Source: Alloascoidea hylecoeti (taxonomy: Eukaryota). From it: a stretch of 64,000 nucleotides of DNA. Location of the stretch: NCBI GenBank assembly GCA_001600815.1, contig BCKZ01000001.1, positions 974,613 to 1,038,612 of the forward strand. The letters run 5' to 3'. The notes beneath the pieces were generated by a model. It was not told where the DNA came from and did no database searches. It was given only the letters and a program-made list of their open reading frames with translations. This document shows, piece after piece, positions 2,355 to 25,532 of this stretch. The position numbers and the translations under genes are program-made. Numbering within the stretch: position 1 is the first letter of the stretch; every line of letters begins with the position of its first letter.

Positions 2355-3003
2355 TTAAGCTTTTGTTTCGGTGGTAGCTGCAATCGCAGGTGTTTTAGCA
2401 GCAGCTTCTTCATCTTCGCTATCAGAAGAAGACTCATCATCTTCAGCATTACTATTAATACTAAGATTAGCAGCTTGAGCTTCAGCTGACATTTTAGATA
2501 ATCCTTCCAATTGTGATAGATCAAGACCATTCATAGCATCGGCTCCTTCAACCTTATTTTCAACTTCTTCTTGTTCATCTTCATCAACCCATTTATCAAA
2601 ATCGGTATGAATATAATGAAGTTTTCCCTTTTGTTTAAACAATCTTGGCCAATATTCCAAACCTTTTTCTTTTTTTTGTAAGACAAAATAAATAAATCGA
2701 CCAGTTACATTATACTTTGATTTTGTTGGTTCAACATCCTTAAAAAATTCAATGTTTAATTTATACAATTGATCATGTTCTCCAACTGATTCAATTGATA
2801 ATTTAGTATCTGTTATATCAATTTTTGGATTTGTTGCGACTGGAAGGTTAACTGTTAAAAAAATGATATTCTTTTCTAGAATATTCTCATTTGATCTTTG
2901 TGCCCATAAGACTATATCAATAACAAAAAATTGTTAGTTCACTATTTAGCAATTATATTTAAAATAGTAGAAACATACCTTCAGGAACTATAGCAGATGA
3001 CAT
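2355..3003 (-). CDS. SBA1: Hsp90 co-chaperone p23 (Sba1/Wos2); intron 2978-2912
   Basis: The spliced N-terminus reads PEVLWAQRS, followed by YWPRL and HTDFDKWVDEDEQ and an acidic tail. Confidence 0.93.
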
Positions 3004-3194
3004 TTTCAGTAAAGTTATTTAATTTCAATCGAAAGTGTTAAAATTCAAGAATAACTAAAAAAATACAAAAGCAAGTGAGCAAATCCTTTTTACTCCAATT
3101 CTTTTGAAACATCCAGACGTTTCTAGATTTTTCATTTCTCGTTTCTCACGTGTTGATTGCCACTTTTTGGATTTTTATTCAATCAAAATTAATA

Positions 3195-4259
3195 ATGATA
3201 CTTCAGGATTTACCATATGATTTAAAATGTATTTTAGTTCGGAGTTCACCAGAATGGCGGTTCACTTGTAAGGAGTTTCGCAGGATTGACAATGATGTTT
3301 ATAAAACTAGAGCGATACAAGGTTTAGGATTAGATATTATTAATGAATTTTATGAATCAAAATTTGGATATTTATGGGAACAGTACTTGATTGCAAAGGA
3401 TATTTATACAGAAGTGAGTTTACAAACATGTACAACTGAAGAATTAATTGATGATACGTGGGGTTATTTATATAAGAAATTACAATGCCCTTTTTTATTA
3501 CTCGACAAGAAATTCTTTACCATCTTTCAACATGATATTTATGAGTTTTATAATGATGATAATAATGAAAATTCGATTGGAAAGCGTACGCATTTAAATA
3601 ATATAAATAAAAATAAATTGATGGACTATAATCCAGGTTATGGTGTTAAAATCGATTCTGCCTATAATGTTTTCGGACAAATAAAGATAAGATTATTCCC
3701 TGACAAATATTTGATTCTATTAACATTTAAGCACGAAACTTCAAAGTCACATAGTTTCTCACCATTAAAAATATCAATCAAAGATTCAACTACACATCAA
3801 GAACTAGGCTCTTGTTACACAAGAAATGTCGAAAGTAATTTTTTATCAAATTATATACTTGGTATGAGAGACATACCATCTTTAAATCCCAATCCAATTC
3901 CAGATACAATTCCAAACGGAATTGTAGATTTAATCCATCTGAATAATGAGAGATCAGAAGCAGATTATATAAATACATGGCGACGAATAACATTAACAAT
4001 TGAAGAAAGAGGTTACGCAAGAAAACAAGATCTATCATTATATCATTTTAAATTGATTCCTATTAGTACAATACCAACTAATAATTTAAGTAATATGAAA
4101 TTGCAAATTAGTTCGAGGAAAACCTTTAATGAAAAATTTGGGGATATGGATTTATCATTTCCTTTAAAGAAAAAATTGGATGATCAAGCACAATCTCCTT
4201 TTATGATTAAAGAAACTATTGATTTGTATAGAGCAATTCAAGAGATTCTAGGAACTTAA
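3195..4259 (+). CDS. F-box protein, resembles Ucc1/YLR224W
   Basis: N-terminal F-box-like LQDLPYDL. The segment IDDTWGYLYKKLQCP resembles Ucc1 IADSWYIVYNALQYP. The first ATG is at 3195. Confidence 0.55.
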   Translation: MILQDLPYDLKCILVRSSPEWRFTCKEFRRIDNDVYKTRAIQGLGLDIINEFYESKFGYLWEQYLIAKDIYTEVSLQTCTTEELIDDTWGYLYKKLQCPFLLLDKKFFTIFQHDIYEFYNDDNNENSIGKRTHLNNINKNKLMDYNPGYGVKIDSAYNVFGQIKIRLFPDKYLILLTFKHETSKSHSFSPLKISIKDSTTHQELGSCYTRNVESNFLSNYILGMRDIPSLNPNPIPDTIPNGIVDLIHLNNERSEADYINTWRRITLTIEERGYARKQDLSLYHFKLIPISTIPTNNLSNMKLQISSRKTFNEKFGDMDLSFPLKKKLDDQAQSPFMIKETIDLYRAIQEILGT

Positions 4260-10840: not shown

Positions 10841-12670
10841 TTACCAGTCGTCAGCTTCCTTTTCTCTATCATCATTATTATTGGCATTGCCATTATTATC
10901 GTTGTAATCATCGCGATTATCGTTATCATTCTGAGGAGAACGAGATCTATCACGAAAATCACGGCGGTCATCACGATTATCCCTATCATCCCTATCTCTA
11001 GGACGGTCACGACTATAACGATCGTCTCTTCTATCGTCCCTTCTGTCGTCTCTTCGATCATCTCTGTAATTGCTTCTTCTATCATCTCTTCTACGATCGT
11101 CACCACGTCTGTCATCACGGTCTCTGTAGTTATTTCTGTCACGACCGTAACCACCACCACGTCTATCATCACGTCTGTCATCACGCCTATCATCTCTACG
11201 ATAGTTATCACGTCTGTCATATCTATCGTGCCCTCCATACCCTCTACCACCATCACGTCTATCATAATCTCTGCGCCCAAAATCTCTTCCACCTCTTCCA
11301 CCTCTTCTGTCACCATATCCACCTCTGCCGTATCTACTAGGTGGGGGAGGAGGTGGTGGTCCAGTGAAATCCAACTATTTGCAAAAATTTGGTTAGTATA
11401 CATAAATAAGAAAGCAAAAAAAGACACTCAACAATAGTTGTACTTACATCTTGTTTAACAGTGACCCTCTGACCGAGGAAGTCAATCTCATCTAACTTCT
11501 TGATAGAATCATCGAGATCATCTTGAGTTTTAAATTCCATAACACTAAAATTAATTGGAAATTGTTAGCATTTATCAAATTGTCAATTTAGACCTACCCC
11601 AGTGATGTTGTGAAGTTCGAATGTAATAATGAACCATTTCAATCCAAGACCACAAATTTTCATGCCATCGAATGTATATAAAAGAGGAAGAAGTACCCAC
11701 CCATCACCATCCAAATCACGAGGAATATCCGTATAAACTGCGTTCACCCCTGCGGTACGGGCATAATCTTTTAGATCCTATAAGAAACGGGTGTGGATAA
11801 TTAGAAACCAAAGCTTATTAAGTACCAAGAGAATAATCCAGTATGTATTTAAGTGAAAAGATAACAGCAATCTAACTCCAGGAATATCATTTTTTTATCT
11901 TTCAGTTTTCACTTTCTTCTGTAGAGTAAACTTCAAAAGGAGGAACTGACTAGGGGATAAATATATATAATATTGCAATAGTAAATACGCAATTTAGATA
12001 TATTTATCAAACCAAGTGTACCAAAAGATATAATTGTTTAAACCACCAGAGGAGAGTTTTATTATTATTTCCCAGGGGAGCATAAGGAGAAAAGGGAGCC
12101 AAAAGCCAGACCATAGTCCTTTTTTTTTTGTATGTTCTTACCTGCCAAGTTGAGTCATGAGGAATGCCTTCAACGATAATGCGGAATTCACCACGTTCAT
12201 ATCTGCTTTCCTTGCGCTCTCTATCAAAGTTACGACGACCACCCTTGGCCCATTCAACTTGGAGAGTTTGTCCATTAAGTTCAAACCCATCTAATTTTTA
12301 TGATATTAGTAATCTGCATAATAGACATTAAAACAAAACAATCAACTTACCATAATCACGTTTGGCTGATTCTGCTTCTTCGGCAGTTTCAAATTCAACA
12401 AACCCCTTTTGATAAAATATTAGAATCTATAATGTGAAATATGCAAAACTGAGAAAAAAAAAAAGAAAGTTTCTATTTTTGTCCCATACATATCCATTCA
12501 TGAGTTTAACATCTAAAACTTTTCCAGTCTTGTTGAAAAGATCCTGGATATCCTGACGTTGGACTATCATTTTGTTAGCTAAAGATCCCAATATAAATTT
12601 TAGTTAGGAGTAATGCCATACCTTCCATAGAGATTGGACGAACGAAAAGTCTGGTGTTCGAGTCAGACAT
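10841..12670 (-). CDS. NPL3: Npl3/Srp2-like SR protein (2 RRMs + RGG/RD-rich tail); exons 12670-12622, 12563-12490, 12405-12351, 12290-12142, 11777-11701, 11544-11448, 11374-10841
   Basis: RRM1 reads NTRLFVRP...MNGYGFVEF and the pseudo-RRM reads STWQ|DLKDYAR. All six introns are GT-AG with branch-point-like motifs. Confidence 0.85.
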
Positions 12671-12834: not shown

Positions 12835-15800
12835 ATGTCTTCAAACCCCCTTCTTTTTGCCAGGAGGGTCTTCAAACCTTCCAAATTTCACCTTAATGCT
12901 TTGAAATTAAACAGAACCCTTGCTTCTGCCTCTTCTAGACTGTATCAACCTGGGGCTAAATACTGTGGATACACTGTTAAAAGATCAATTGATGTCCCGG
13001 AGTTCGAGTTAACAGCCGTCGAGTTGGTTCATGATAAAACAGGGGCACAGCATTTACATATAGATAGAGATGATCGAAACAATGTGTTTAGCATGGTATT
13101 CAAGACTAATCCACCAGACGCCACTGGAGTTCCTCATATCCTAGAACATACAACACTTTGTGGTTCCCAAAAGTTCCCAGTAAGAGATCCTTTCTTTAAA
13201 ATGTTGAATAGATCTTTATCAAATTTTATGAATGCAATGACTGGGCATGATTATACTTTTTATCCATTTGCTACAACAAATGAAATTGACTTCACAAATT
13301 TAAGAGATGTTTATACTGATGCAACTTTAAGTCCATTACTAAACGAAGAAGACTTTTTCCAAGAAGGTTGGAGATTAGAGTCGGAAGATCCAAAGGATAA
13401 AACTTCTCCGCTTACATTCAAGGGTGTTGTGTATAATGAAATGAAGGGACAAATGTCAAGTGCTTCTTATCTTTTTTATATCCGTTTCCAAGAGAATATA
13501 TATCCAAGTTTAAACAACAGTGGCGGAGATCCGGCACATATTACCGATTTAGGTTATGGTGATTTGGTTGATTTTCATTCCTACAACTATCATCCTTCAA
13601 ATTCTAGGGTATTCACTTATGGTGATATTTTGCTTAAAGATCATCTACAACATCTTGACAAGGTGTTTAAAACTTTTGGTAGAAGAGCAACATCAAATGA
13701 AATTAAACAACCTATCAATCTGACAGAGTCAAAGAGAGTACTTGTCAAAGGACCTGTTGATCCAATGGTGCCTGCTGATGGTCAAGTCAAAACATCGTTG
13801 ACTTGGCTTGCTAGTACTCCAACTGATATCTATGAAACATTTTGTTTAAAGGTTTTAGGTTCGTTACTAATGGATGGCCACTCTTCTCCTTTACACCAAG
13901 CCCTGATTGATACTGGACTCGGTTCCGATTTTTCAGTTAATTCTGGCATGGATACGACAACTGCTGCTAATTTTTTCACTGTTGGTTTGCAGGGAATCTC
14001 TGAAGATAAGATTCCAGAGGTTGAAATCGCTATCAGAACAACACTGAATAAAGTTATGAAGGAGGGAATTGATCCTATTAGGATTGAGGCTATAATCCAT
14101 CAAATGGAACTTGGTAGAAAGGACAAGAAATCTAATTTCGGTATGCAATTATTATACTCTGTTGCACCAGGTTGGGTCAATAATATTGATTCATTCGAAT
14201 TGCTAAAATGGAATGAAACCATTTCAAGATTTAGAAATGATTTGAGTAAAGGTAGATTCCTTGAGAATTTGATTCAAAAGTATTTTGCTGCCGATAAACC
14301 AACTTTCAGCTTTACAATGCTTCCGGATGATAATTTCGAAAAGCAACTTGAAGCTGATGAGAAAGCCAGATTGGAGCAAAAAGTTAATGCTTTAGATGAA
14401 GAAGATAAAGAAATCATTTACAAAAGAGGTTTAAGATTACTTGAAAAACAAACTGAAAAGGAAGATTTGACTTGTCTACCGACTTTACATGTTAATGATA
14501 TACCAAAAACAGCTGAAAAATTCCCATTGGTTCATTCTCTCATAAATTTGGCCGGAACCGAAAAGGTGGACCTACAAAAGAGACTAACTGGTACCAATGG
14601 AATCACATATTTTAGAGCTATAAGACAACTGAATAATATTCCAGAGGATTTATATCCGTATCTACCATTATTCTGTGATGCTTTAACTAACCTAGGTACA
14701 AAATCGAAAACAATGGCTGAGTTAGAAGAGCAGATAAAGTTAAAGACAGGTGGTTTATCTGCTGGAGTAAATGCTCGTCCATCCCCCTCTGATATTAATA
14801 GTTTAAATTTACAACTTTCCCTTTCTGGTGTTGCATTAGATCAAAATGTTGAGCCTATGTTTGATTTATGGTCTCAATTATTACTAGAAACGAATTTTGA
14901 AAATACAGATAAACTTATCTCATTAATTAAGGCACAGGTTTCAAATAACTTGAGTTCTTTAGCTCAAAGTGGTCATTCCTACGCAAGATCAGTTGCGGCG
15001 TCTTATTTAACACCAGTGAAAGCCATATCGGAACAGTTATCTGGCGTTCAACAGGTGAAATTTTTAAATGACCTCACCTCCATGATAGAAAATGGCACAT
15101 TTGCAGATGTCGTGATTCCAAAATTAAAGGAACTACAACAGTTAATTGTTGCTTCTTCAAAATCTAGAATCGCATTAACATGTGGTGAAAATGCAGCTGA
15201 TTCAAATGAAAAGTTAGCAAGAGAATTTATCAATAAATTGCCTGCATCAGCTTTAGAAGATGGAAAAGATTATTTATCACAATTTAAGATGCCTTTGTAT
15301 ACAGCTGGTATTAAAACGAATGTAAGATTGCCTTTCCAAGTTAGCTACATAGCTGCTTCGCTCAAAGGTGTTTCTTATACCCATGAAGATGGTGCTCCTT
15401 TACAAGTGTTATCGAATCTTCTTACTTACAAACATCTTCATCATGAAATAAGAGAGAAAGGTGGTGCTTATGGTGGAGGTGCTGGTTATAGTGCTACAGA
15501 AGGTATCTTTTCTTATTACTCTTACAGAGACCCTAACCCAATGAAGTCTTTAGAAACAGTTTCTAAAGCCGGAGAGTTCGCAGTTGGCAAAGATTGGACA
15601 GATGAAGATTTAGAGCAGGCCAAGCTGACAATATTCCAAGGGGTTGATAGTCCTATTAGTGTAAAATCTGAAGGTATGATTGAATTTGTTGATGGTATTA
15701 CAGATGAAATGAGGGAAACAAGGCGAAAGAGATTGCTTGAGGTTGAGATTAATGATGTTAAAAGAGTAGCTCAAAAATACTTAATTGACAATAAAGAGAC

Positions 15801-15900
15801 GAGTTTTGCAGTTGTTGGGCCCAAAAAGGATGAAATAGACGATAGCTGGAATGTGATTGAGATGGGTGGAGCAGCTGAAGCATTGGGCGAGATGCAATGA
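12835..15900 (+). CDS. CYM1: Mitochondrial presequence protease (M16C)
   Basis: TGVPHILEHTTLCGS (HxxEH), RDPFFKMLNRSL and IREKGGAYGGG, with a basic N-terminal presequence. Confidence 0.95.
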   Translation: MSSNPLLFARRVFKPSKFHLNALKLNRTLASASSRLYQPGAKYCGYTVKRSIDVPEFELTAVELVHDKTGAQHLHIDRDDRNNVFSMVFKTNPPDATGVPHILEHTTLCGSQKFPVRDPFFKMLNRSLSNFMNAMTGHDYTFYPFATTNEIDFTNLRDVYTDATLSPLLNEEDFFQEGWRLESEDPKDKTSPLTFKGVVYNEMKGQMSSASYLFYIRFQENIYPSLNNSGGDPAHITDLGYGDLVDFHSYNYHPSNSRVFTYGDILLKDHLQHLDKVFKTFGRRATSNEIKQPINLTESKRVLVKGPVDPMVPADGQVKTSLTWLASTPTDIYETFCLKVLGSLLMDGHSSPLHQALIDTGLGSDFSVNSGMDTTTAANFFTVGLQGISEDKIPEVEIAIRTTLNKVMKEGIDPIRIEAIIHQMELGRKDKKSNFGMQLLYSVAPGWVNNIDSFELLKWNETISRFRNDLSKGRFLENLIQKYFAADKPTFSFTMLPDDNFEKQLEADEKARLEQKVNALDEEDKEIIYKRGLRLLEKQTEKEDLTCLPTLHVNDIPKTAEKFPLVHSLINLAGTEKVDLQKRLTGTNGITYFRAIRQLNNIPEDLYPYLPLFCDALTNLGTKSKTMAELEEQIKLKTGGLSAGVNARPSPSDINSLNLQLSLSGVALDQNVEPMFDLWSQLLLETNFENTDKLISLIKAQVSNNLSSLAQSGHSYARSVAASYLTPVKAISEQLSGVQQVKFLNDLTSMIENGTFADVVIPKLKELQQLIVASSKSRIALTCGENAADSNEKLAREFINKLPASALEDGKDYLSQFKMPLYTAGIKTNVRLPFQVSYIAASLKGVSYTHEDGAPLQVLSNLLTYKHLHHEIREKGGAYGGGAGYSATEGIFSYYSYRDPNPMKSLETVSKAGEFAVGKDWTDEDLEQAKLTIFQGVDSPISVKSEGMIEFVDGITDEMRETRRKRLLEVEINDVKRVAQKYLIDNKETSFAVVGPKKDEIDDSWNVIEMGGAAEALGEMQ

Positions 15901-19278: not shown

Positions 19279-20817
19279 ATGCCAAGTCTTAGAGAGAAGG
19301 GGCAAAAGTCCCACAATAAAACTAAAATATTAAAGTCTGGTAAAATGCGTAAGATCACAAAGTCTAAGAAAACCAGTAAGAATGAAGAAAAGAGTAAAAC
19401 TGATCGAGTAAGCGAAAATAGTAAGAAACTCAAGAGATTAATAGCAGATTTTAAATCCAAAGAAGAAGAAAACAAAAACTTAAATAATACAAAAGAATCT
19501 GATGATGAGCCATCAAAAGAAGATAATAATGAAGAAGAAGAATCTAACCCTGTTGATAAAACAACATTCCATGATCTTGGTCTTTTACCTCAATTATGTG
19601 AAGCAGCCGAAGCAATGAAATTTAAACATCCAACACCTATTCAAAGTCAGGCTATTCCATTTGCCTTGGAGGGACGTGACATTATAGGTTTGGCTCAGAC
19701 TGGTTCTGGTAAAACAGCTGCATTTGCTCTTCCAATTTTGGATGCACTTTGGAAAGAACCTTCTAGATGTTTTGCATGTGTGTTATCACCAACAAGAGAA
19801 TTGGCAGTTCAAATAACTGAACAATTTGAAGCATTGGGTTCAAATATGGGCGTGAAAGTTGCAACTCTTCTAGGAGGTATGAATAAGGTGGACCAAGCTC
19901 TTGCTTTGGCAAGAGGTCCACACATCATCGTTGCTACTCCCGGTCGTTTAGTCGATCATTTAGAATCCACAAAGGGATTTTCGTTAGGAAAATTGAAATA
20001 CTTGGTTATGGACGAAGCAGATAGATTACTTGATATGGATTTTGGAAAAGAAATTAATACAATTTTGAAAATTATTCCACCAGAACGACATACTTATCTT
20101 TTCTCGGCTACAATGACAACTAAAGTTCTCACATTACAAAGAGCATGTTTAAAAAATCCTGTGAAAGTTGCAGCAAATGTTGAAAATACCACAGTTGCAA
20201 CATTAGACCAAAAAATAATATTTCGACCTTTTGCAGAGAAAGATTTCATTTTAATATATTTACTTAATGAATTTCTTGGAAATTTGACAATTATATTTGC
20301 AAGGACTTGTAATGATGTACAAAGAATAGCAATTTTATGTCGAACATTAGGATTTCATGCTGTTCCGTTACATGGACAATTATCACAGAGTGCCCGTTTA
20401 GGAGCTTTAAATAGATTTAAATCAGGCACGAGGTCAATTCTGGTTGCTACAGATGTTGCCGCCCGTGGTCTTGATATTCCTCATGTCGATTTAGTTCTAA
20501 ACTATGATATCCCTACAGACACAAAATCGTATATTCATCGAGTTGGTAGAACGGCAAGAGCAGGAAGATCAGGTAGAGCTCTTACACTTGTTTCACAATA
20601 TGATTTGGATCTGCTTTTAGCCGTTGAAAACACATTAGATAAAAAGCTAGAACTATATGATATTAATCAAGATCACGTTGCGTTGCTACATGAACGAGTT
20701 AGTGAAGCACAACGAATGGCAATTAGAGAAATGAAAGATGTTCAAGCAAAACAAAAAACTAGAAATAATAATGGATTTCGGGGAAGAAGAGGTAAAAATG
20801 ATAGGGAAGAACAGTGA
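19279..20817 (+). CDS. RRP3: DEAD-box rRNA helicase Rrp3/DDX47
   Basis: Q motif, [31 protein letters not shown] and HRVGRTAR, ending with the Rrp3-type [10 protein letters not shown] tail. Confidence 0.93.
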
Positions 20818-22258: not shown

Positions 22259-22894
22259 ATGATAACAATGAGAGGCAGCTTTACAAGATCTAACTATAGC
22301 TATAGAATGAGAGTTTTCAATGCAAATAATCTCATTGCAATTCCAACATTAATATCAAATCAAAAAAAGATCTATAGAATATTTAATGACAAAGAAGTTG
22401 TTCTAGTAGATTTACTTCATGAATTTCTAGGACATTTGACAATTGTATTTACAGAGAGTATTGAAGAGGTACAAAGAATTACTATTATATGCCGAGCATT
22501 AGGATTCAACGTCGTCCCGTTAGATGGATTAACGCCAAGTATTCGCTCTGAAGCTTTAAATGCTTGTATGTCTGAGAGATCAATTTTGATTGCTACAGAA
22601 GATGGTACTCGTGGTCTTAATATTCCTTTTGTTGATTTAGTTTTAAATTATGAGGTACCCCACAGTACAAATTCTTACGTTTACCGAGTTAGTATGACAT
22701 CCAGAGAAAGAAGATTAGGTACAGCAATTACACTTTTTTCGACACCACATGATATACAAACAATCTCAAGGATTGAAAATGGACTAAGAAGACGTTTGAT
22801 AATCCATGGGATTAACGATTTTCATATCGAGCAATTATATGAAGTAGTGAATCAAGCAAAACAGAAAGCTGCTAGAGAAATGATTCTTAGCTGA
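22259..22894 (+). CDS. Truncated RRP3 paralog (RecA2/helicase C-terminal domain only, motifs degenerate)
   Basis: Colinear with the RRP3 C-terminal half (LLHEFLGHLTIVF, VQRITIICRALGF, RGLNIPFVDLVLNY). The ORF is intact but motif VI reads YRVSMTSR. Confidence 0.7.
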   Translation: MITMRGSFTRSNYSYRMRVFNANNLIAIPTLISNQKKIYRIFNDKEVVLVDLLHEFLGHLTIVFTESIEEVQRITIICRALGFNVVPLDGLTPSIRSEALNACMSERSILIATEDGTRGLNIPFVDLVLNYEVPHSTNSYVYRVSMTSRERRLGTAITLFSTPHDIQTISRIENGLRRRLIIHGINDFHIEQLYEVVNQAKQKAAREMILS

Positions 22895-24702: not shown

Positions 24703-25532
24703 ATGTCGTGGCAAGGTATGTTTTTATTTTCCATGATGAAGAGGACCACTTTGTAAATTTCGTTGGTCAACATTTAAAGGAGATCTGTCGTCATATCATT
24801 ATTTTGTTGTTTGGTGGGATGTTGATCATCGATCTGATCTTAAATTAAATTTTTTACAAAATGTTTACAAAGGATCTTTTGGGTGGGAAAAGGATCTCCA
24901 ATAAGAATTGATTTACTAACATCAATCTTTTATAGCATACGTTGACAATCTTGTTGGATCTGGAAAGGTTGACAAGGCCGCTATATACTCAAGAGCCGGA
25001 GACAGTGTCTGGGCCTCCAGTGCTGGTTTCTCTGTAAGTTTTTATGTGTGATTGACGGATTAAAAAAACGAATTACTAATTTTTTGTCTTATGTTTAGTT
25101 ATATGCCCCTGAAATCACTGAATTGGCAGGTGGATTTGATGATCCCTCAAGATTACAAGCTTCTGGTTTACATGCCGAAGGTCAAAAATACTTTTTGTTA
25201 AGGGCTGATGATCGTAGTATTTATGGTAAACAGGTATGTTGTTGATTCTTAATAAACGTATTAGGGTGGTTTGTGGGAAAAATGACGTGTGATTTTTCAT
25301 TTTATTATTTTTCCCTGGTGTGTTCACATGTCCACATCGCCCTTAATCAGTTAGGTGAAATTATGTTCTAACTTGTTTTTTTGCTTGGATATTATAGAAC
25401 AATCAAGGTCTTGTTGCTGTTAGAACTAAACAAGCAATATTAGTAGCCCATTATCCTGAAGGGGTTCAACCAGGTGAGGCTACAAAAGTTGTTGAGCAAT
25501 TGGCTGATTATTTGATTGGTGTGAATTATTAA
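24703..25532 (+). CDS. PFY1: Profilin; introns 24716-24935, 25034-25098, 25234-25397
   Basis: The spliced protein reads [31 protein letters not shown]...[17 protein letters not shown]...[12 protein letters not shown]...[13 protein letters not shown]. Confidence 0.95.
24729..24841 (+). ncRNA. Candidate intronic box C/D snoRNA in profilin intron 1
   Basis: A perfect C box (ATGATGA, 24733-24739) and D box (CTGA, 24834-24837) lie about 100 nt apart in an unusually long intron. No target is confirmed. Confidence 0.3.

Follow-up and report, generated by a model that had tools for sequence, protein, structure and literature searches.

A long, TGG-rich intron at the SRSF5/srp2 regulatory position in an SR protein gene of the budding yeast Alloascoidea hylecoeti, a candidate for self-regulated intron retention

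The fourth intron of an SR protein gene of Alloascoidea hylecoeti occupies the position of the unproductively spliced intron of animal SRSF5 and fungal srp2, is far longer than most introns of its genome and carries a strand-specific excess of TGG motifs. The gene, here called SRP2, was found in a 64,000-nt stretch of contig BCKZ01000001.1 (the window, whose numbering is used throughout). We hold it somewhat more probable than its opposite that intron 4 (11778..12141, minus strand) descends from the SRSF5/srp2 regulatory intron and still acts through regulated whole-intron retention and nonsense-mediated decay (NMD), with Srp2 sensing its own level through UGG(A) motifs. The original prediction had made two cryptic 3' splice sites within this intron the switch, and that headline mechanism was not supported. 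Its description of a 364-nt intron splitting the TWQ|DLKD motif and containing many TGG motifs was confirmed.

SRP2 spans 10841..12670 of the minus strand and consists of seven exons (12670-12622, 12563-12490, 12405-12351, 12290-12142, 11777-11701, 11544-11448, and 11374-10841) encoding 344 amino acids, with introns that measure 58, 84, 60, 364, 156, and 73 nt in the sequence. The same seven exons were returned by a gene model that was blind to the annotation and self-trained on 864 kb of the genome (the 64-kb window plus 80 stretches of 10 kb). The protein carries RRM1 followed by a pseudo-RRM with the SWQDLKD-type helix of the Srp2/SRSF4-5-6 group, here TWQDLKD, and ends in an RGG stretch, RD repeats and one RSRSP, a tail of the RS or fungal RD/E-rich kind; the tail of fungal Srp2 is described as RD-type (PMC9767378). 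Among the proteins predicted from the 864 kb, SRP2 was the top match to a profile of eight fungal Srp2 sequences (E 1.9e-48, colinear), and the runner-up was a Gbp2/Hrb1-like gene (E 7.5e-25). Exon 4 matches plant SR30/SR34 and SRSF1, and one of the three matches in a representative-protein search was relevant (plant SR30); queries of exon 4 alone, or of exons 2-4 translated through their introns, gave no match in protein searches, and these look-ups named no yeast ortholog. Introns 1 (phase 1, same column), 4 and 5 are shared with mould srp2 genes, and intron 2 had no mould counterpart in 22 loci. Judged by its sequence, SRP2 is a fungal Srp2/SRSF5-type SR gene (SRSF4-5-6 subfamily) of an early-branching budding yeast.

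No second Srp2/Npl3 paralogue was seen in the genome contigs examined, in which an intron-split copy could be missed. To our knowledge, NPL3 of Saccharomyces cerevisiae has no intron. Two Gbp2/Hrb1-like paralogues were present, at L249 (G000:C21) and L250 (G000:C10); the L250 copy has at least eight introns, and its predicted 490-nt first intron is probably mis-predicted promoter sequence. An Srp1-like, single-RRM SR gene (L248:3706-4536, minus strand) was predicted to be intronless, compared with the six introns of SRP2. Broken fragments at L249:412-1767 and 2388-3217 (plus strand) resemble, by eye, Ty1/copia reverse transcriptase-RNase H.

That the host is a budding yeast, as originally predicted, was borne out by the neighbouring presequence protease, which has 55-56% identity with the proteins of Lipomyces, Nadsonia, Babjeviella and Wickerhamomyces. 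A single-gene tree of the protease, built by the quick FastTree method from 32 of the 120 matches listed, placed the host within Saccharomycotina, outside Lipomycetaceae and Nadsonia, and adjoining the clade with Pichia, Ascoidea, Wickerhamomyces and Saccharomyces. The NMD genes are represented in the genome by UPF1, UPF2 and UPF3 domains. The protease gene (Cym1/PreP, 12835-15900, plus strand) stands head to head with SRP2, with some 165 nt separating its start from that of the SRP2 coding sequence (12670, minus strand), and the two have a very short shared promoter. Elsewhere in the window, a short ORF (22307-22894, plus strand) looks by eye like the C-terminal half of a DEAD-box helicase; it lies downstream of a full DEAD-box gene (19279-20817) and is possibly a decayed partial duplicate.

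Intron 5 of SRSF5 is unproductively spliced in human and across animals, one of very few alternative-splicing events common to animals and fungi (Lareau and Brenner, 2015; PMC4379411). The available text of that paper reports that the equivalent srp2 intron is retained in N. crassa (NCU07069, intron 3), A. niger (An16g03890) and P. placenta, that it is stabilised in a upf1 mutant and that it ranks among the longest 1-3%; it describes no poison exon in fungi, calls the Aspergillus intron sequence "not notably conserved" and presents fungal regulation as unexplored (PMC4379411). The N. crassa primers given there encode IEYKDA, in exon 2, and GEGFVE, across the junction of exons 4 and 5; the NMD-targeted intron 3 of N. 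crassa is therefore the WQ|DLKD intron and the same intron as intron 4 of SRP2. By this correspondence of sequence, intron 4 is the positional homologue of the SRSF5/srp2 intron, as had been proposed, with the human equivalence taken from the text of PMC4379411. SRP2 has in common with the known system the orthologous gene, the intron position, the great length, the stop on retention and the NMD genes; it adds the (Y)TGG(A) array and a lineage, since the table of that paper contains no Saccharomycotina. The poison cassette exon of animal SRSF5/B52/rsp-1 lies in the same host intron (PMC4379411). In contrast to the animal cassette, intron 4 has neither a credible internal exon nor an ultraconserved block.

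Intron 4 is in phase 0 and is the second longest of 89 high-confidence introns and tied for fourth among all 196 introns predicted ab initio in the genome, where the median is 70-71 nt. Were it retained whole, the first in-frame stop (12007..12009), 44 codons into the intron, would give a 153-aa product and lie 937 nt ahead of the normal stop. Its splice sites, which count against the retention model, are unremarkable: the donor GTAAGA (12136..12141) is at the 60th percentile, the productive acceptor TAG (11778..11780) at the 51st and the branch point TTCTAAT (11800..11806, A at 11801) at the 25th. In a model combining acceptor and branch point, the productive acceptor scored 5.66, a value at which intergenic DNA supplies 0.1 decoys per 300 nt. 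The branch point had been called weak, which was overstated; it is mildly weak, is the sole site in the intron scoring above 2.5, and recurs in SRP2 intron 2 and in 3 of the 89 high-confidence introns. Other functions considered for the intron were rejected. A stable overall fold is contradicted by a whole-intron z of -0.33; a snoRNA host is contradicted by the same value and by the lack of an Rfam match near any gathering score; and a poison cassette exon is contradicted by internal donors that reach the 10th percentile at best and by internal acceptors without branch points.

The motif content of intron 4 sets it apart from other introns of the genome. Against the expectation from those introns, intron 4 contains 12 TGG (2.9 expected, P 5e-5) and 10 YTGG (1.4 expected, P 3e-6), a YTGG count reached in 1 of 2016 intergenic windows; all 10 YTGG are in the sense orientation, with none antisense, and TGG is the top 3-mer of the 64 tested (P 8e-5). 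Eight TGG form a 5' cluster of candidate pseudo-RRM sites (12012..12113; at 12113, 12108, 12101, 12074, 12048, 12045, 12023, and 12014) and four form a 3' cluster (11808..11880; at 11880, 11840, 11827, and 11810), the last of which abuts the branch-point heptamer, with TTTGG directly preceding TTCTAAT. A TGG close before the branch A was found in only 13 of the 196 introns. TGGA alone was not enriched in intron 4 (2 vs. 1.0), and the two-RRM pattern CC-n-WGGA was absent from it. The SR-like protein Npl3 of S. cerevisiae has the same layout of RRM and pseudo-RRM, its RRM2 targets GNGGA or UGGA, and pseudo-RRMs have GG in common (PMC10630445). From this published UGG(A) target, the pseudo-RRM of Srp2 would be expected to bind the TGG sites of intron 4; other U/G-binding proteins could use them as well.

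Homologous introns were collected by a pattern scan for the acceptor-side motif, which gave at least 117 metagenome loci (flanks for 80) and two loci of a viral collection that added nothing. The pattern requires DLKD[FY]AR with a CGN codon and disfavours many yeasts. Of the 119 loci among the matches listed, 97 passed the SR filter and 93 were left once four bacterial-looking loci had been dropped by hand; 69 of these had a complete GT intron, reduced to 57 by dereplication at 90% and to 54 fungal loci by leaving out three judged non-fungal by eye. Taxa were read from the protein sequence, not from database labels. The original prediction had called for an alignment across relatives, and in it intron 4 aligned with no homologous intron (best E 0.19); the loci listed included no recognisable Saccharomycotina ortholog.

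Among the matches listed, all 54 non-redundant complete fungal introns sit at WQ|DLKD. The intron is at least 128 nt long in 42 of them and at least 250 nt in 30, compared with a median of 53 nt for the next intron, where the 128-nt cut between long and short was set post hoc and the species, being related in part, do not count as independent cases. In the 42 long introns listed, TGGA was the top 4-mer (194 occurrences vs. 32 in shuffled sequence, a sixfold excess, and present in 42 of 42), was biased to the sense strand (194 vs. 71) and had 2.3 times the density seen elsewhere in the loci. YTGG was correspondingly in excess in long introns (2.31 vs. 0.86 per 100 nt) and not in short ones (0.62 vs. 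0.68) among these matches. The splice signals of the listed introns differed with length in the same manner: long introns had non-consensus donors (40 of 42) and mostly no CTRAY (missing in 39 of 42), whereas short introns had consensus donors (11 of 12) and CTRAY (9 of 12). Again among the matches listed, a GG motif lay within about 14 nt ahead of the branch A in 30 of 39 long introns, in 2 of 12 short introns and in 7 of 28 neighbouring introns. The short state occurred at five separate places in the protein tree of the listed loci, and thus length, weak splice signals and motif appear to behave as one module in this simple comparison, whose cut-off was post hoc.

Measured against this mould pattern, which was derived here, intron 4 shows the sense YTGG excess and the site beside the branch point; it lacks the non-consensus donor and branch point and the dominant TGGA. 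Its splice sites are average, unlike the weak ones of the mould homologues sampled, and YTGGA makes up 2 of its 10 YTGG compared with 154 of 324 in the mould introns listed, a drift to TGGT and TGGC. Under a 4-mer model built from the mould introns, intron 4 has a z of 4.0, short of the 4.3 that marks the 99th percentile in 400 intergenic windows. With the same model the highest score in the window belonged to another gene, which we take from its sequence to be profilin-like (24703-25532, plus strand; introns of 220, 65 and 164 nt), whose first intron, after codon 4, reached 4.4.

Of 15 transcript-like fungal contigs among the matches listed, 8 keep the WQ|DLKD intron with the next intron removed and 7 are spliced. 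Two of the contigs, L157 and L182, match the intron of the genomic locus L116 at 138/139 and 139/139 positions and have both flanks spliced. The retention contigs may be splicing intermediates. For A. hylecoeti, three same-study metatranscriptome contig sets contained no piece spanning the introns of SRP2, a result that speaks neither for nor against retention. None of the 15 listed contigs joins WQ to an internal acceptor, one of them (L160) being uninformative on acceptor use, as it begins inside the intron. Contig L148 was considered as an alternative-acceptor transcript and rejected, as it contains the full-length intron with GG in place of the GT donor. In Sclerotinia, isoforms of the srp2 homologue that lose an RRM are reported at all five stages examined (PMC9597501), which fits the retention model, but the intron is not named in the available text.

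Several other features of the srp2 loci were observed. Three non-fungal SR genes (L149, L169, and L189) have introns of 134, 132 and 947 nt, respectively, at WQ|DLKD without a YTGG excess, the last being an animal-type locus. In moulds L155, L165, L131 and L183, intron 1 of srp2 is long and rich in YTGG (341 nt with 7, 334 with 7, 165 with 6, and 301 with 9, respectively); the set includes three moulds with a short WQ|DLKD intron, a possible turnover of the regulated intron. In the second intron region of mould srp2, the best join is VP|AFHG in some cases and VP|DG in others, a pattern that suggests a micro-exon of 6 nt or a tandem acceptor, and SRP2 intron 3 sits two codons downstream of this VP| site. 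Two C-terminal forms follow the second RRM, D-VSDPPPP (L117, L157, L182, and L228) and D-TQPDIPR/DPQSEIPR (L127, L154, and L132). SRP2 has a similar proline run after intron 6, and an alternative in-frame event at the final intron may account for the two C-terminal forms.

In the mechanism that we favour for intron 4, the pseudo-RRM of Srp2 would bind the UGG(A) clusters that follow the donor and adjoin the branch point on its upstream side, and excess Srp2 would hinder recognition of the donor or branch point and slow the splicing of its own message. The intron would then be retained whole, the stop 44 codons in would fall about 940 nt early, and the message would be removed by NMD. For A. 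hylecoeti itself we infer the retention, its NMD sensitivity, the binding and the direction of the feedback. Npl3 takes another route, autoregulating its own transcript via termination-site choice (PMC2538588, citing Lund 2008); the RD-rich tail that the SRP2 protein has in common with mould Srp2 is counted as a difference from Npl3.

The best surviving alternative, which we nevertheless regard as unlikely, is that intron 4 is a relic, inherited at an ancient position and now constitutively spliced, its length and TGG content being left over or serving as ordinary enhancers for a long intron. The average splice sites of intron 4 make a relic possible, and the drift from TGGA to TGGT/TGGC points the same way. 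The regulated layout was lost at least five times in moulds among the matches listed, and alternative splicing is described as rare in Saccharomycotina (0.26% of genes, together with Taphrinomycotina; PMC3925392). Against a relic, the strand-specific TGG excess (10 vs. 0) and the placement at the branch point persist even though the sequence can no longer be aligned, and loss of the motif in the listed mould introns accompanies shrinkage, which intron 4 has not undergone.

Less likely still, to the point of being improbable, is regulation through the internal acceptors of the original prediction, whereby use of 11950 or 11919 would produce stop-containing messages. Both AGs (acceptor 1, 11950..11961; acceptor 2, 11919..11930; minus strand) are present and are preceded by 8 and 7 pyrimidines of 9, respectively. 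Reading on from the first, a stop is reached after 15 codons; from the second it comes after 7, by way of a purine patch and the TAA at 11897-11895. Their scores (-0.07 and -0.22), however, correspond to the 4th percentile of 85 real acceptors and are those of decoys, as AGs just as good occur in intergenic DNA at 8.1 and 8.5 per 300 nt, and the strongest candidate branch points in the 60 nt around them rank at the 3rd and 2nd percentiles. An AT-rich hairpin (11956..12008) with an 11-bp perfect stem ends 6 nt before the 11950 AG and could bring a weak branch point (A at 12037) near it, but at 1.03 that branch point falls short of the 5th percentile. The hairpin stands out modestly: its folding z is -3.3, its sliding-scan values are -4.0 to -4.7 against a 5th percentile of -4.3 in 89 intergenic windows, and 11-bp inverted repeats occur in 3.75% of 400 windows. 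The intron core contains three pyrimidine-rich YAGs vs. 0.9 in dinucleotide shuffles (P 0.04, by a criterion picked post hoc), and this excess together with the hairpin near 11950 keeps the internal-acceptor idea alive at low odds. The purine patch after 11919 contributes to five matches to GAAGA/AAGAA/GAAAG vs. 1.5 expected (P 0.018; the matches overlap and one is at the donor), and Srp2 of S. pombe is reported to bind purine-rich enhancers (PMC9767378). In the relatives, pyrimidine-rich YAGs are not enriched in the 42 long mould introns listed (53 vs. 67.5 shuffled), no listed contig uses an internal acceptor, and the fungal form described in the available text of PMC4379411 is retention without a poison exon; intron 4 also has no internal donor above the 10th percentile with which a cassette exon could be completed. 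On the sequence evidence, retention with a conserved self-binding motif appears the better model.

Intron 5 (11545..11700, minus strand) may act as a second switch, serve as a decoy or have no such role. That regulation has moved or been extended there, through a weak donor in a TGG run competing with an inner GTAGGT, or through retention, is in our judgment very doubtful. At 156 nt, intron 5 is three times the mould median of 53 nt among the matches listed, its donor GTGGGT is at the 11th percentile, and it contains 6 TGG vs. 1.25 expected (P 0.002). The inner donor (11597) is stronger, at the 31st percentile, and its use, like every alternative including the skipping of exon 5, would end the reading frame prematurely; PMC4379411 has the turnover of such events as its theme. 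Set against this, the inner donor lies 32 nt from the branch A, where 87 of 89 introns have at least 39 nt, and intron 5 has just two YTGG (P 0.13). Intronic polyadenylation or termination in the TGG-free middle of intron 4 (TATATA at 11969/11967, then an A-rich run), akin to the 3'-end autoregulation of NPL3 (PMC2538588, citing Lund 2008) and to the early polyadenylation of frog and fish SRSF5 (PMC4379411), is hardly credible, given that TATATA, TAYRTA and AATAAA are not enriched over other introns (P 0.21, 0.17, and 0.53).

The broader picture that retention with self-sensing suggests is tentative, and we give it rather less than an even chance. The srp2/SRSF5 intron would have kept a UGG(A) cis-code across ascomycetes without alignable sequence, a code that in moulds goes together with weak splice signals and disappears with them as a package when the intron shrinks. 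A. hylecoeti, next to the clade with S. cerevisiae, would still run the loop, to which intron 5 may add a second switch, at the stage just before feedback moved to the 3'-end choice of NPL3. The kind of event is already published; the Saccharomycotina lineage and the candidate cis-code appear to be new. Our literature search found no paper on the TGG motif or on a Saccharomycotina case, a weak sign of novelty in that subscription papers, such as the FgSrp2 study, lay outside it. A strand-specific motif that is the protein's own published binding site, stands at the branch point and is gone from shrunken introns makes a direct mutational test of autoregulation possible, and the test is open to Neurospora, Aspergillus or this yeast. 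The presence of the intron in a budding yeast would also bracket the loss of the splicing-based loop on the way to S. cerevisiae.
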